Virus record (IMG/VR): IMGVR_UViG_3300037358_000003
Span: 37,773 to 101,772 of that record
Length of the DNA: 64,000 nt
Source: a virus
Reading direction: 5' to 3' (one strand)
In this document: positions 45,387-55,674 of the stretch, piece by piece
Numbering within the stretch: the first letter of the stretch is position 1
Layout of the letters: each line of letters starts with the position of its first letter
The notes under the pieces: generated by a model
What the model saw: only the letters and a program-made list of their open reading frames with translations
Databases searched by the model: none
What the model was told of the DNA's origin: nothing
Translations under genes and position numbers: made by a program

Positions 45387-45956
45387 TTATGGTTTCGCTG
45401 GCCACAATCCCACCACTCTAGCGTTGTCCGGCACAAACGATTGCGGCAAGACGATTGCGCCAGCGCCAATGGTGACGCCGTTGCCGATCTTGACTCGATC
45501 GCAAATCGTCGCGTTCGCACCGATCAAACAATCGCTACCGATCTCAACATCGCCAGCAATGACAGCACCTGGACACACGGTAGTGAAGTCACTAATCGTG
45601 CAGCGCGTCATGCTCACGGCGTAATTGATATGAACGTCTCGACCGAGCGTTACGGAATGCAACAACACGGTGCCGGGTGCGATGACGCAGCCGGGTCCAG
45701 CAGTAACCGACGCGCCACAAATGGCCGATGGGTCGATCAGTGCCGACGCTCCCTCTAGTATGCACATCTCAGCGATTCGTCTGCGTTCAGATGGCTTGTT
45801 GATACCGATGATGACAGTACCAGTCCACGGCATCGCTTGACTGATATTGGCATCATAGAGTGCAAGTTCTTCGTCGGGATGAACGCGCTGCCAAATTGAT
45901 AAAATATCTTTTCCGTGAGATCCTGCGGCGCAAAGTAAGTTTGTCACGTATGCCAA
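45387..45956 (-). CDS. hexapeptide-repeat sugar acetyltransferase (PglD/NeuD-like)
   Basis: Left-handed beta-helix repeats IG..C.IGANA.I. Confidence 0.88.
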   Translation of the reverse strand: MAYVTNLLCAAGSHGKDILSIWQRVHPDEELALYDANISQAMPWTGTVIIGINKPSERRRIAEMCILEGASALIDPSAICGASVTAGPGCVIAPGTVLLHSVTLGRDVHINYAVSMTRCTISDFTTVCPGAVIAGDVEIGSDCLIGANATICDRVKIGNGVTIGAGAIVLPQSFVPDNARVVGLWPAKP

Positions 45957-46600
45957 CCTTGTGCGCGATTATTGCCGATGTGAAGCACTCTCGGATCGTC
46001 GTTAATGTTGCCAAATATTCCGAAGTGGAAATTGTAGAAGTTCAGCGTGTCGGTGATGCCACGCTCTAGTCCGTCACCGGGTTCGGCCAGACACAACTGT
46101 GTTACGTCAATTGGCACAAGCATCGGGTTAAACGTGAACAAGCGATGCGTGCTGACATAACCATCACGCTGTGTGTACTCATCGGCATACTGCTGCATGT
46201 AACCACCGACCGCAGATTCCTCAGCGTTAACCGGCTGACGGTAAAGTGCGATCTGCGCGAGCAGTGGGTCGTTGTCGAGAATACCAACCATGTCGTGCAG
46301 TGGAATCTCGCATTGAGCGACCATATCGCCCTCCCAGTGCAGCACGTAGTCTGCGTTCATGTCCCACGCGGTTTCCCACGCCGACCTGACTGCGCCAGCT
46401 AGACCTCTGCGGGTTTCGTGGTGAACTTGCTTGTCAAACTGCGGGTACTGCACGCGCATTTGTTCCGCGTAATGGGGATCGCCGGAATCGTTTATTAGCA
46501 CCATTTCGTCAATGAGAAAAACGTGTTTCTCTAGTGAGGCGACAGCGTGGCGGAGGTAGTCTGGTCTGCCGTCATCCAGTACAACGCACACAATGCTCAT
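45944..46600 (-). CDS. glycosyltransferase
   Basis: GRPDYL, INDSGD, DYVLHWEGD, FTFNP. Confidence 0.82.
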   Translation of the reverse strand: MSIVCVVLDDGRPDYLRHAVASLEKHVFLIDEMVLINDSGDPHYAEQMRVQYPQFDKQVHHETRRGLAGAVRSAWETAWDMNADYVLHWEGDMVAQCEIPLHDMVGILDNDPLLAQIALYRQPVNAEESAVGGYMQQYADEYTQRDGYVSTHRLFTFNPMLVPIDVTQLCLAEPGDGLERGITDTLNFYNFHFGIFGNINDDPRVLHIGNNRAQGWHT

Positions 46601-47271
46601 CTGTTGCCCCAGATCGCGTTCATGGTCGCCACGTTTTGTCCAGCATACATCCAACGCTCAGGGCCGCTTACCGACTCATAGTGAACGATGGTTGATTCGG
46701 CCACATATTTGCAAACGTAGCCAGCCTCATTGACGGACATGCACAACGCACAATCTTCGTAACCATTGCGAAAGGATAAATCAAATCCACCAACAGCGTT
46801 GAACACACTCCGACGAATCACAAGGCAAGCCCCAGTAACGCCGTCAACAATACGTGTCGGCAACTCCTGCTTGATTTCCTCACCGCCAGCGGAACCGTTG
46901 CCGTGCCACAATCGCACCCCGCTAGTTTGCAAATCTCCCGCTGGGTGAACGATGCGAGGCCCGGCGATTGCAACTTGTGGATCATCAAATGCGGCGATCA
47001 GTGGTGGTAGCCAATTAGGTTGTGGAATCGTGTCTTGATTAAGGAAACAGATCAGGTCTGCGTGAGATAAAGACGCACCTTCGTTGGACGCAGCACCGAA
47101 GCCGAGATTAGTGGTGTTACGAACAACTGCATCAGCAGCCACATCCCAGTCTTCGCCATTGAGCACTAGGATTATTTCTATGCCCTCTGTGTTTGCGTGT
47201 AGGGCGCCCAAACACTCATCTAGGTACTTCCTGTCACCGTAACAGGGGATGACCACAGATGCATGCATCAC
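46597..47271 (-). CDS. glycosyltransferase family 2
   Basis: SVVIP, NLGFG.A.N.G, FLNQD, GACL, GGFD, YED. Confidence 0.92.
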   Translation of the reverse strand: MMHASVVIPCYGDRKYLDECLGALHANTEGIEIILVLNGEDWDVAADAVVRNTTNLGFGAASNEGASLSHADLICFLNQDTIPQPNWLPPLIAAFDDPQVAIAGPRIVHPAGDLQTSGVRLWHGNGSAGGEEIKQELPTRIVDGVTGACLVIRRSVFNAVGGFDLSFRNGYEDCALCMSVNEAGYVCKYVAESTIVHYESVSGPERWMYAGQNVATMNAIWGNR

Positions 47272-47984
47272 GGATGCAACACTAGCCGACTCGGAATCGG
47301 ATCGTGCACGGTCGGCACGTTAATGAGTTCGCCCCATTCTTTGCGTAATTGCTCATCTTCAAAATCTCTAAGCCGCTGGTAATGTGCAACATCACCACGC
47401 GCACGATCAGCGTCAGACAGCGCACCGAGCCACAAATCGCGCTTGGCGACATAATGCGAAAAGTCCCGGTACTGCCACTCCCGAATCGCCAGCACGCCAC
47501 CAACACCACCTGAAATACTCACGTCGTGTTGACCCATAGTCAGTAGCGCAGTGGGATTCCATCTGTAGCAAGTTTTGTGCCAAAATTTTGGAGCGATAAC
47601 GCGCGTGTTCCAGTTGTGATGCACGAATGCCTGAAGATACAATTTGTTGTGCGGACAGTCTGCCAACGCTTCAACAACAGTGCGACCGTCTAGTGAGTAC
47701 AGAAACTCGTCGGCGTCGAAGGGTGCGATCCACTCCGCGCCATCAATGCCTGCGTGAGTAGCGAGTCCATTCATCACTGCCGCTTGATGGAATATGGGAT
47801 TGGCGTCGTGCCGCACGTCCAACTGCCCAGTCTCCGCAGCCAGCGTTTCAACGATCTGTGCGGTGCCATCAGTAGACGGCCCAACGCTCACGTAGATGCG
47901 ATCTAGTCCCTCGCAAAGGTGGTGGCGCAACACGGTTTCAATTATTTGCGCCTCATCCCTACACGCAATAATGCCCGCAATCAC
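47268..47984 (-). CDS. glycosyltransferase family 2-like
   Basis: RDEAQII..HHL, STDGT, W..FDADEF. Confidence 0.85.
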   Translation of the reverse strand: MIAGIIACRDEAQIIETVLRHHLCEGLDRIYVSVGPSTDGTAQIVETLAAETGQLDVRHDANPIFHQAAVMNGLATHAGIDGAEWIAPFDADEFLYSLDGRTVVEALADCPHNKLYLQAFVHHNWNTRVIAPKFWHKTCYRWNPTALLTMGQHDVSISGGVGGVLAIREWQYRDFSHYVAKRDLWLGALSDADRARGDVAHYQRLRDFEDEQLRKEWGELINVPTVHDPIPSRLVLHP

Positions 47985-51785: not shown

Positions 51786-54700
51786 CTAGCTATCGCTCAA
51801 CGAGGGAGGCGTAGTGCCTATTCCGACCCCCTGAATTCCGGAAATCATTCCGTTCCAGGCCGGGGCGTAGTGGCAAACGAGTTGTTACAGTTGTGTTACA
51901 ACTGGTCACGTCATTTCTGCGTGACTCTTACACTCTCGTGCAAGACCAGACTATATCTTCATCCACTTTCGTGGAGCACCGTACTTAGTCGTTGAACCTT
52001 CCGCAGTGAAGCGGCTCGGCTGCTGATTGTCCATAGCAACTACTTCTTAGAACCGTCACGCACACTTTTTCAAGTCACGTTGTGGTGTAGTTGATTGACT
52101 GGAGTTTCCAGCAATTCTCGGTGTTTGCTTCCGCTCATTGCTGAACGGTGACTCTATTTCTAAAGTGCCAATCTCGAAAGTCGAAGCGTCGTACGTAAAC
52201 TGAACCACGGGCCACTGAACGGCCACGTAATCCTGCGGCAAAACCATGACGCTTGTTTCCGAGACATTGCTGTCAGGAATCGGAAGCGTCTTCTGCCGAA
52301 TCAGCGAGTTTCCCTGGGGAAACCAGGGGTGAACCGTCAACGGAACCTCGCTACCAGTGACCTCATTGAGGATCGAGGTAACAACCGTACCCGTCTTCAC
52401 GCCACCCATCTCGTTCTGACCAATATAAACACGGTAAGCAGAGTTGGCAGCGTTGTTCACGATGGCATTGGAAAGCTGAAGACGGTCGAAACCGTTGATC
52501 CAGACTTCCTCTGGATCGCCCTTCACTGCCTCGTACAGTGAACCAAAAGCCGTCTGGTACTCGGTACCAGGGTTCGTGGTGCTGAACGCAGCGTTGAGGC
52601 GAGTAACGTAACCACCAGAAGCGGCAGTGTTCGTCAGGAGGCCATCGTAGTTATTTGCAACCGCAGACTGATCAGCGCCGCTAGAAGCGACCTCAGGACC
52701 AGAAGCAGGCTGCGACTTGATGTAGCCAACGTTGTACCCGGTACGACCTGAGTACACGAAAGGACCGGTCGAAACCGATCCGACGTACAGGTTGTAACCA
52801 AGGGCGCCGACAACATCGGAACCAACGGTGACCTGAATGGCCTGACCAGTCGCAACAGACACAGAGGCAGCGGCGGTGGCCGGTCCCTGGTGCATGCTGT
52901 AACCGTTCGTGCCCAAAAGGTCACCAGCGTCAGCAGCCACAACAACCCAAGAGGTTGTAGCAAGTGCTGGCGTAGCAACACCAGACGGTGCGACCGATGC
53001 AGAAACGGCAGCAAGAGTGACGGATGCGGGAGTGCCAAGGGCACCGGCATAGCCAGTCTGTGAGCCGCGACCGTAGATCATCAGGCGCTCGTCTAGAAGC
53101 ATGGTCGAATACAAAAGGGCGGTGTTGCTCAGGGATCGAATGTCTTCGACAAGATTGTTACGCGTCCCTGAAACGCGGACCGAGCATTTCTGTCAGTCTC
53201 TGCATGTCTCCATGCAGTTCGGACTATATCTTAATCTGTTTTGTTGTGCTTCGACATATTGCAATACGCATGTGTCGCCTGCACGTTGCTGTACGCATGG
53301 ATACCGCCCCTACTAAGAGGAACGATGTGATCGACATGCAGATAGCCTGGATCGTAGCGGTTTGTGATGGTATCGTCAATTTCCCAGCCACATAGCTGGC
53401 AAATCCAATCATCTAAATCGGCCACAACTTCACGGTCGACTGGACCATCTACCGTCACACCACGTCTACGCAATAAATAAGCCTGAGAATTTGCGTAACT
53501 CTCGCCCGGATGATCTATCCGATATTGGCGAACTCGCTCTCGTTCCTTATCTCTATTGTTGACGTAGTGTTTCCTAGATCGTCGTCTGCTCGCATCTGGA
53601 TCTTTAATCCGTTCCGCAGCAGCGCGGTCTCGTTTCTTTTGACGATTTGTCTCAAGATCGGAGTGGTAGTTGTTTCGACCGCTTTCTAGGTGATCCTCGC
53701 GATTTTCGGCATACCATTTTTTGTTGTATTCTCTGTGGTACGCGAGTCGCTTTTCTCTATCTTTGTACGGCATTGTCAAATCTCTCCTGTCCGAGAGTGT
53801 AGATGGTTGGAGTCAATACGGGGACAGCCGCACCGACCCCAACCAAACCTTTTGTTAAACAGATTCCACGGTGATAGTCTCTGAACCTTCCCCTGTTACC
53901 GGGGCTCGGCTGCTGATTTTCTCTATCATAGCACTTTTCAAACCATCACGCTCGCCATTTGGGGCCACGTTGTGGTGTCTATGCCTACCGAGACGTTCCA
54001 GCAATTCTCGTGGTTATTGCCTGCCTGATCACTCAGACAGCGGACCTCGTTAAAAAGCCCTGGCCTTGGTACTCCAGATTGTTACCCGTTCGACCAACGG
54101 GGCTACGTCATTTCTGCGTAGCTCTGCATGTCGCCATGCAGTTCGGACTATATCTTCACCCGCTATTTGCGGGGCTTCGCGTGTAGTCTCTACGGACTCT
54201 CTGCTTGCGCAGGTTGCCTCGGTATCGTCTCAGGGAGAGTTTCACCGATACAGCGAAGTTTGCAGTCACCTATTGCTAGGCTACAGACCGAATACCAGCC
54301 TGCCATGAAACACTGTCCGACAACGATGTGGTCACGTAATTAAGCGTGACATCGTAACCGGCGTAGCTAATGTACATATTGTTACTCGCTACTATATGTA
54401 TGACCCTTAGTAGCGGCCCGCATCATTTCTGTGCGAGTCTGCATGTCGCCATGCAGATCGGACTATCTCTTAATCTGTAATTTACGTAACGTATTTGTAG
54501 GTATCGCCATCACGAATTTTGCGAATGGAGCTTGTCGGAACGTTATACTTACGTCCGATGGATGCCATTGTCACGCCATCAGGTGCGAATCTGCGGTACG
54601 GTCCATACATCTTGCCGATACCTGCTAGTTCAAAAAACCTCTGAACGGTGTCCTCGTCGGTCATGCCGAGCCGCATTTCTAAGTGCGGTCCACCATCAGT

Positions 54701-55674
54701 ACCCGGTTTTTTCCAACCGATCCAACCTTCACCTTCAAACAATCCGGCCATCCATGCCAGATTTTCTCGTGTCCAATTTTGCGATACCACTGAATTCCCT
54801 CCTGTCAAAGGTGTTAAATAAATGGTTGACGTTAGCGCAGTGACAGCTACGTCAACGCCAACCAAACCGTTATTACAGACTCCGCGTACTTAGTCTCTGA
54901 ACCTTCCTCATAGTGTATCACACCTCAGAGGCTCGGCTGCTGATTTTCTCTATCAATCGCTTTTCAAACATTCACGCACGCCGTTTCCAGCCACGTTGTA
55001 GTGCGATTGCTTAACGAGATGTTCCAGCAATTCTCGCGGTTATTGCCCGTCTATCGCTAGACGGCGACCCCACATAACTGAGGTCCACGAATGTAGCTAA
55101 GCCCACCTGGGCCAGCGTTCGTGGTGGACTCATTGATACCAGGCTGCGTGGTCGTCTGACCACCAGTGCCGGTTCCAGTAAATCCTGATATCACCTTGAA
55201 TCTGCGACTTCCACCCTGTCCCTTTACACGCGGAATGCTGTTACGCAACGGCGTGGGGCGGGGAGTCAGGAGCTTGGCCGGAGCCTCAAGATCGAAGGGA
55301 ATAAGCCCAGTAGCCACAGGGCTAGTAAGCGTCCACTCCTTTGAAAGCACTTCGGAGCGAGCACCGCTCCAAGTGGACTCGGAAACGCTCTTTGCCATTT
55401 CCACATCGTCAAGAGCCTTGCGGACATCACCCGAACGGGTAGTGTTTACGCGAGTTCTCGCAATAGGGAAGGCATTGGCGCGCTCCGTGTCGATTGGGTC
55501 GCCCCACGTCACCTCTCCAGTAATACCAGATACGGTGGATTTGGTCATTTCCTCCACGAACAATTCGTGGCGATCAACCATTTCCGCACGCTCGGTGCTG
55601 GTCAGAGGACGCTTCGGCTCACCCAATCCAGGACCGATGTCATAAAGGGCATCAGCCTTTGGGATTGCATACAT
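51786..55674 (-). CDS. major capsid protein, 5 exons (55674-55081, 54374-54297, 54074-54056, 53149-52163, 51877-51786), about 589 aa
   Basis: Spliced frame is continuous: ...SYIRGP|YISYAG...VSWQA|EYQGQG-F|EDIRSLS...FEIGT-F|CHYAPAWNGMISGIQ...; total 1770 nt; FDLEAPAKLL.PR.TPLRN motif; follows protease and scaffold. Confidence 0.9.
51878..52162 (-). mobile_element. group I intron 4 (285 nt, no ORF)
   Basis: P AATTGCTGGAAA, Q AATCAGCAG, R GTTCAACGACTA, S AAGATATAGTCT; exon ends in U, intron ends in G. Confidence 0.9.
53150..54055 (-). mobile_element. group I intron 3 (906 nt) with HNH ORF
   Basis: P1 GGGCU/GGUCC with U:G; P AATTGCTGGAAC, Q AATCAGCAG, R GTTCAGAGACTA, S AAGATATAGTCC; terminal G. 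Confidence 0.92.
53231..53773 (-). CDS. intron-encoded HNH endonuclease
   Basis: CQLCG...HVDHIVPLSRGG.H..SNVQ..HAYCN..K; lies between R and S (P8 loop). Confidence 0.9.
   Translation of the reverse strand: MPYKDREKRLAYHREYNKKWYAENREDHLESGRNNYHSDLETNRQKKRDRAAAERIKDPDASRRRSRKHYVNNRDKERERVRQYRIDHPGESYANSQAYLLRRRGVTVDGPVDREVVADLDDWICQLCGWEIDDTITNRYDPGYLHVDHIVPLSRGGIHAYSNVQATHAYCNMSKHNKTD
54075..54296 (-). mobile_element. group I intron 2 (222 nt, no ORF)
   Basis: P1 CAGGCU/GGUCUG, P10 GUAUUC/GAGUAC; R GTAGAGACTA, S AAGATATAGTCC; terminal G. Confidence 0.9.
54375..55080 (-). mobile_element. group I intron 1 (706 nt) with LAGLIDADG-like ORF
   Basis: P1 GACCU/GGGUC, P10 AUGUG/UACAU; P/Q/R/S consensus elements; terminal G. 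Confidence 0.92.
54482..54790 (-). CDS. intron-encoded single-motif LAGLIDADG-like protein (short, possibly degenerate)
   Basis: LAWMAGLFEGEGWI...MTD motif; start after SD AGGAGG. Confidence 0.75.
   Translation of the reverse strand: MVSQNWTRENLAWMAGLFEGEGWIGWKKPGTDGGPHLEMRLGMTDEDTVQRFFELAGIGKMYGPYRRFAPDGVTMASIGRKYNVPTSSIRKIRDGDTYKYVT

Follow-up and report, generated by a model that had tools for sequence, protein, structure and literature searches.

We conclude that the predicted major capsid gene of a metagenome-assembled phage, IMG/VR record IMGVR_UViG_3300037358_000003, is interrupted by four group I introns, and that it is very probably expressed through four precise splicing events that join five exons, two of them only 78 and 19 nucleotides (nt) long. 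The DNA analyzed, referred to here as the window, is a 64,000-nt stretch of that record, and the capsid locus occupies positions 51786 to 55674 of its minus strand. A preliminary description of the locus had proposed four group I introns at particular positions, and a cmscan comparison of the whole 64-kb window with Rfam gave exactly four matches, each inside one of the proposed inserts. All four are to RF00028 and on the minus strand, with E values from 8e-16 to 6e-10, and all are full-length (model positions 1 to 253 of 253). Beyond these four capsid-gene introns, no RF00028 match was found in the 101,772-bp genome.

The coordinates that follow are all on the minus strand. Exon 1 (55081 to 55674; 594 nt, amino acids [aa] 1 to 198), which matches phrog_13692, begins with an ATG at 55674 that has GAGG 8 to 9 nt upstream; the stop codon of a scaffold-like gene lies 17 nt before this ATG. 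Intron 1 (54375 to 55080; 706 nt, phase 0, 70.4 bits) falls between RGP and YIS and carries an open reading frame (ORF). It is followed by the first micro-exon, exon 2 (54297 to 54374; 78 nt, 26 aa, YISYAG...SVSWQA), the protein sequence of which is 100% identical to that of an intronless homologue, P0008. Intron 2 (54075 to 54296; 222 nt, phase 0, 50.9 bits) has no ORF and separates exon 2 from the second micro-exon, exon 3 (54056 to 54074), whose 19 nt encode EYQGQG and supply the first base of a Phe codon. Intron 3 (53150 to 54055; 906 nt, phase 1, 50.8 bits) interrupts the gene between GQG and F and also contains an ORF. Exon 4 (52163 to 53149; 987 nt, phrog_13692 at E 1e-60) covers the spine helix, an inserted beta-rich domain, and most of the A and P domains. 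Intron 4 (51878 to 52162; 285 nt, phase 1, 66.9 bits), again without an ORF, follows FEIGT, and exon 5 (51786 to 51877; 92 nt including the stop codon) continues with FCHYAPAWNG.

Joined, the five exons give 1,770 nt and 589 aa with zero internal stops. The last base of every 5' exon is T and the last base of every intron is G (4 of 4 in each case). With junction phases of 0, 0, 1, and 1, two codons are split, by introns 3 and 4, and both encode Phe (T/TC and T/TT), as the preliminary description had it. The boundaries were also searched for independently, with no constraints other than the Rfam match positions, a T at -1, a terminal G in the intron, an uninterrupted frame, and the highest-scoring alignment to P0008, which lacks introns; this search returned introns at 55080-54375, 54296-54075, 54055-53150, and 52162-51878. 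These agree base for base with the boundaries proposed earlier and so reproduce the 589-aa frame and both micro-exons.

Intronless relatives provide the most direct comparison. The spliced product aligns with nine intronless homologues (562 to 574 aa, 60 to 77% identity) without gaps at any of the four junctions. Failure of such homologues to align across the junctions had been put forward in the preliminary description as evidence against the introns; all nine align across all of them, and this objection therefore does not arise. P0008 is continuous across the junctions (RGPYISYAG, SVSWQAEYQGQGFEDIRSL, and FEIGTFCHYAPAWNG), and the junction peptides expected of the spliced product are RGPYISYAG, WQAEYQGQGFEDIR, and EIGTFCHYAPAWNGM. 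With exon 4 as the query, 581 relatives were recovered, and many of these are 572 to 574 aa long and uninterrupted. The micro-exons can also be compared codon by codon. Between exon 2 and its counterparts in 11 uninterrupted relatives, there are 152 synonymous and 13 nonsynonymous codon differences; for exon 3, the corresponding counts are 22 and 0. These counts indicate that the micro-exons are under strong purifying selection, and the synonymous excess therefore argues that exons 2 and 3 are read as protein in the spliced frame. Two other kinds of insert were considered and rejected. Inteins are ruled out, as none of the frames through the inserts is free of stop codons and the inserts fit a ribozyme model, and so are additional core-less mini-introns, as the alignment is gap-free around the four junctions and 571 of the 589 residues align to the 573-aa P0008.

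The four introns share a common plan, consisting of P1, a short P2, P3 to P8, P9, a hairpin whose CAGAAAUG loop is conserved, and a variable terminal hairpin. Each ends in a GUAACAAY motif followed by 1 to 3 nt and then the terminal G. Core identity is 72% between introns 1 and 3, 63% between introns 1 and 4, and 47 to 55% between intron 2 and the rest; intron 2 is thus the most divergent of the four, and it is without a P5 extension. The minimum-energy fold of each 5' region pairs the last exon U with a G (4 of 4 introns), and the U.G pair in P1 and the terminal G previously described are present throughout. Beyond the U.G pair, the guide pairs with the 5' exon over 4, 6, 4, and 3 bp in introns 1 to 4, respectively, and P10 pairing with the 3' exon extends over 5, 4 to 6, 3, and 1 bp. 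The 19-nt exon 3 accommodates both requirements without overlap, with its 5' end engaged in P10 with intron 2 and its 3' end in P1 with intron 3.

Covariation across the family of related introns, described below, points in the same direction. P7 forms the guanosine-binding site, and among nine ORF-less members of the family this pseudoknot is paired in 45 of 45 cells. Two of its five pairs vary, each with two to three pair types, giving the compensatory variants GACUA/UAGUC, GAUCA/UGAUC, GACCA/UGGUC, and GAACA/UGUUC. Over the whole consensus structure of the same nine introns, 41 of 67 pairs are maintained through changes on both sides. For all 19 introns of the family, P1 pairing with the intron's own exon averages 3.7 bp, compared to 2.3 bp for mismatched combinations of intron and exon.

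The identity of the interrupted gene was less apparent from sequence comparison. No Pfam family matched the capsid exons, and PHROG 13692, which does match them, has no assigned function. Profile searches of PDB sequences returned no capsid; the matches, all weak, were to structural proteins of phages and covered the inserted domain only, and a fold search was therefore needed. A first AlphaFold model, from 34 close homologues, was poor (pLDDT 53), whereas a 100-sequence alignment headed by intronless P0008, which is about 78% identical to the spliced product, gave a model with a pLDDT of 83.7 and a pTM of 0.74. The top Foldseek matches of this P0008 model in the PDB are all HK97-fold shells at probability 1.00, namely, SU10 (7z48_F, E 1e-10), Pa223, SPO1, phiXacJX1, D3, and HK97 itself (1ohg, E 4e-7). 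On the basis of the modeled fold, the interrupted gene is an HK97-fold major capsid protein gene, as had been suggested. Its family is large, comprising 986 clusters at 50% identity in a profile search of 1.84 billion representatives. The head genes upstream include a gene for a MuF-like minor head protein (PF04233), an XkdF-type prohead protease gene (PF14550), and a 667-aa Ala/Glu/Lys-rich scaffold-like gene.

Two introns have no ORF and two carry one in the P8 loop, as the cmscan alignments show and as had been described, with the difference that one of the two nuclease assignments is clear and the other weak. The intron 3 ORF (53231 to 53773, minus strand; 180 aa, probably starting at ATG 53773) is, on its profile matches, an HNH homing-type endonuclease, with a hit to the Pfam HNH family (PF01844, E 6.8e-12, residues 127 to 180) and hits to HNH/EndoVII families in PHROG. 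Its 3' end overlaps the 3' strand of P8, and its stop codon lies at the P8/P7 junction. The intron 1 ORF (54482 to 54790, minus strand) most likely starts at GTG 54790, which has AGGAGG 7 nt upstream, and would encode 102 aa; the longest frame, from TTG 54865, has 127 aa. It combines a LAGLIDADG-like first half-domain with a C-terminal helix-turn-helix. The likeness is weak (Pfam LAGLIDADG_3, E 0.059, under the cutoff of that family), and the motif LAWMAGLFEGEG aligns with the first such motif in I-HjeMI, bI3 maturase, and I-AniI (PDB chains, weak E values of 0.005 to 0.04). The alignable part is limited to about 50 residues (36 to 87 of the long frame), after which the helix-turn-helix tail begins, and the 102 to 127 aa of this ORF compare with 254 to 269 aa for the two-domain enzymes aligned to it.

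A homologous leader precedes both ORFs, the proteins of which are unrelated (54882 to 54785 and 53862 to 53768, minus strand). It forms a long hairpin (GGTTTGGTTGG...CCAACC) with a CUGUCA or CUGUCC loop complementary to the Shine-Dalgarno region (UGACAGGAGG/GGACAGGAG). Judged from this complementarity, the leader could be a pseudoknot between the loop and the Shine-Dalgarno sequence that restrains translation of the nuclease.

We propose that one group I intron family invaded the single capsid gene of a complete tailed phage at four conserved positions. The late transcript would lose all four introns by two-step, guanosine-initiated transesterification, with each guide pairing first with its own 5' exon (P1, with the U.G pair at the cleavage site) and then with the 3' exon (P10), and the five exons would be rejoined into the 589-aa frame. 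Introns 1 to 3 have an in-frame stop 6 to 7 codons past the 5' splice site (7 codons in intron 1), and these early stops should hold ribosomes away from the folding core. The HNH protein of intron 3 and the short LAGLIDADG-like protein of intron 1, both encoded in P8 loops, probably drive, or formerly drove, homing, which would target intronless alleles during mixed infection. The ORF-less introns 2 and 4 would spread only through co-conversion or would persist passively. We infer that splicing takes place, efficiently and without help from a protein, and that the endonucleases have activity.

Several observations weigh against this proposal. Splicing is predicted here from DNA sequence, and the genome is a metagenome assembly, not that of an isolate. 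Introns 2 and 3 barely reach the RF00028 gathering score, which is 50 bits. The P10 of intron 4 is weak, at 1 bp, and this intron has no early in-frame stop, leaving a 35-codon read-through into the core (P3 to P5; 52162 to 52056, minus strand); because of these two features, its splicing could be less efficient. Finally, the intron 1 ORF appears too short for a canonical LAGLIDADG enzyme.

Some of these points would also be explained if the introns are genuine and one or more of them cannot splice without a protein helper, either the LAGLIDADG-like protein of intron 1 acting as a maturase or a host factor, in which case capsid output would rely on assisted splicing. The best solved-structure matches of the intron 1 ORF include the bI3 mRNA maturase (2ab5, E 0.009), and the ORF seems too short for a nuclease. 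The weak P10 and long read-through of intron 4 would also fit a need for assistance, as would the absence from intron 2 of the P5 extension that is present in the other three introns. However, no part of the core is missing from any of the four introns, each of which matches the group I model over its full length; the similarity to maturases is marginal and spans only the same 50 or so residues; and the phage group I introns that have been studied to date splice themselves in vitro, as is generally known (PMC3984707). We therefore regard a need for a helper as unlikely.

It is far less probable still that at least one intron has lost the ability to splice, which would make this capsid gene a pseudogene and the element carrying it defective or in decay. 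Two of the four RF00028 matches are at threshold, and related capsid genes occur in bacterial chromosomes (metagenome-assembled genomes [MAGs]), where prophages can decay. The genome, however, has direct terminal repeats and is 100% complete according to CheckV (53.6% G+C), and this is its sole capsid gene, as a tblastn search of the genome for a second copy found this locus only. In addition, the exons are in frame without stops, the micro-exons appear to be under strong purifying selection, and the helices of the introns, P7 among them, show covariation within the family. We give similarly little credence to an assembly artifact, in which the contig would merge intron-plus alleles of different strains and no single phage would have all four introns; the record is indeed a metagenome assembly and the relatives are polymorphic for intron presence at many sites, but introns 1 to 3 are only 78 and 19 nt apart, so that their junctions fit within single reads, two independent contigs of related phages are also multi-intron (five and four introns), and the exon 4 ORF of the window is recorded on two contigs.

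Introns in this gene are not confined to the window. Among 80 IMG/VR loci with this capsid, 4 are interrupted, referred to here as L020 to L023. The capsid gene of L021 (an 88.6-kb contig) has five RF00028 matches, two of them just below the gathering score; the number of matches is four in L023 and three in both L022 and L020. Removal of the introns restores frames of about 566 to 569 aa in L021, L022, and L023. Group I introns also occur in chromosomal, prophage-like copies of the capsid gene in Acidimicrobiaceae MAGs, where L206 has one intron (5336 to 5579) and L207 has two (5293 to 5473 and 5825 to 6119).

Comparison of the five phage genomes (the window and L020 to L023, with sites in P0008 numbering) gives 14 distinct insertion sites, at 111, 115, 125, 181, 202, 207, 213, 229, 492, 522, 525, 538, 543, and 549, of which only 213, 538, and 549 are common to more than one genome. 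Three boundaries, at site 202 of L021, site 525 of L022, and site 125 of L020, are approximate because they would place the guide G at an implausible distance inside the intron. Conservation is significantly high in the segments that contain the 14 sites, and none of 10,000 random site sets reaches the observed mean conservation; for the four sites of the window alone, the corresponding P value is 0.04. Site 213, between GQG and F, falls in the most conserved motif of the capsid family, and it holds the HNH-bearing intron in the window and an ORF-less intron in L023.

The 19 introns form one family, with nearest-neighbor core identities of 57 to 86%, and they tend to cluster by gene region, not by genome, in a tree that is short and in places weakly supported. 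Occupancy of the same site does not imply the closest relationship: intron 1 of the window (site 181) is 78% identical to the site 213 intron of L023, compared to 72% for the two site 213 introns. The pattern is consistent with introns that repeatedly moved to new sites close by and whose guides were retargeted. Searching IMG/VR with the core string GAATTGCTGGAA..AATCAGCAGCCGAG gave matches in at least 120 contigs, none with this capsid; the string is generic to group I cores, and it was of no help in finding relatives.

The capsid gene of L020 (IMGVR_UViG_3300044470_000004) has a further peculiarity. At 3423 to 5362, a segment of capsid exon (residues ~160 to 230) is duplicated in tandem together with the start of an intron, giving two identical 5' splice sites (atgcgact followed by CAAAGCGG) about 550 nt apart. 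The duplication could be the footprint of incomplete homing or recombination, or it could be an assembly artifact.

We also considered a broader and more speculative possibility, which we hold with low confidence. The capsid gene of this acidimicrobial phage clade may be persistently colonized by one group I intron family that retargets quickly, as the 14 or more sites in five genomes and the clustering by gene region might suggest, with an intron load that is not neutral. Its effect could come from competition between phages, in which endonucleases would drive marker exclusion of intronless rivals in mixed infections, from gating of capsid synthesis by four obligatory splicing steps, or from both.

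Multi-intron phage capsid genes are already known, including a published five-piece case. The capsid gene of a crAss-like phage in the Zeta group (OLRF01000054, a cMAG), as presented in the passages of Yutin et al. (2021; PMC7886860) covered here, is in five fragments. Like the gene in the window, it belongs to a metagenome-assembled phage and is broken by gene callers, and three of its four intervening segments carry group I intron-type protein domains (PMC7886860). It differs in that the phage lineage is unrelated, the host is of the Bacteroidota, and the interruption is combined with stop-codon recoding (PMC7886860). In those passages it is recognized by intron-encoded domains, with no splice junctions or ribozyme models given (PMC7886860), whereas for the window we resolved four ribozymes, the junctions at base level, and the product of splicing, and no ORF is present in two introns. 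The preliminary description had called four introns in a capsid gene unusual, which is fair with respect to the literature on isolates; the case is not the first, however, given this five-fragment gene and the five introns of L021.

Single introns in capsid genes have been described in the lactococcal phage Tuc2009 and in the Cluster J mycobacteriophage LittleE, for which splicing was shown by reverse transcription-PCR and N-terminal sequencing (PMC3706429). LittleE, a large siphovirus of Actinomycetota, resembles the present case in its group I-type capsid intron, which follows an exon-terminal U, has G as its last base, and carries a homing endonuclease gene; that gene is on the opposite strand (PMC3706429). 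Both phages differ from the window in having one intron per capsid gene instead of four. In the Jug phages, the mean number of group I introns per genome is 18.5, and terL is in two to three pieces (PMC12880540). Staphylococcus phage Twort has three group I introns in orf142 (Landthaler and Shub 1999, as cited in the parts of PMC6669764 and PMC3706429 covered here). To the extent that these citing passages describe it, the likeness is that of several related small group I introns in one phage gene, three compared to the four of the window. The Twort introns are reportedly of subgroup IA2. In the cmscan alignments, the introns of the window leave no room for P7.1 and P7.2 between P7 and P3', so they probably belong to another subgroup.

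What is new here is the occurrence of one intron family at 14 or more sites of the capsid gene in five related phages, the relative with five introns, and the location of the insertion sites in conserved segments. A cleanly resolved case from an actinobacterial-type phage is thereby added to the few published multi-intron phage structural genes. The 19 related introns at 14 sites, with guides matched to their own exons, constitute a natural data set for studying the movement of group I introns into new sites and the ways in which a late gene with high expression copes with multiple obligatory splicing events, among them splicing across a 19-nt exon.

The introns also have consequences for annotation. 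Gene callers break this capsid gene apart, and among the 120 closest proteins in the databases, 82 are incomplete, many of them ending in short nonhomologous tails at recurrent break points (~493 to 500, 521 to 528, and 552). The break points of fragment proteins of 340 to 390 aa were read from the protein ends, and some fragments may merely be cut by contig ends. Because of this fragmentation, capsid-based phage taxonomy and counts are distorted unless introns are modeled, and the distortion concerns a family that is large and has no Pfam model.

The host is probably an acidimicrobial actinobacterium, because the nearest chromosomal relatives of the capsid protein are in uncultured Acidimicrobiaceae MAGs (61 to 69% identity) and an Rv2525c-like endolysin is encoded downstream. 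More remote chromosomal relatives (37 to 42%) are found in Streptosporangiales and Amycolatopsis. Among GenBank phages, a megablast search with the locus gave no match, and tblastn with exon 4 gave only distant matches (26 to 28% identity), to Brevundimonas and Thermoanaerobacterium phages.

Several neighboring genes are of separate interest. The 667-aa scaffold-like protein (57694 to 55691, minus strand) has DnaJ-type CXXCXGXG zinc-finger repeats near its N terminus and a long tail rich in Ala, Glu, and Lys, a composition that is unusual for a scaffold. Free-standing nuclease genes are present on both sides of the head genes: a 374-aa HNH and DUF559/Vsr-like protein is encoded between the MuF and protease genes (60376 to 59252, minus strand), and a 195-aa endonuclease VII-like protein is encoded directly 3' of the capsid gene (51623 to 51036, minus strand). 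Several family 2 glycosyltransferases and a glycosyltransferase-methyltransferase fusion are encoded beside the virion and lysis genes (45944 to 47984 and 63393 to 62125, minus strand), and these may form a virion glycosylation module.

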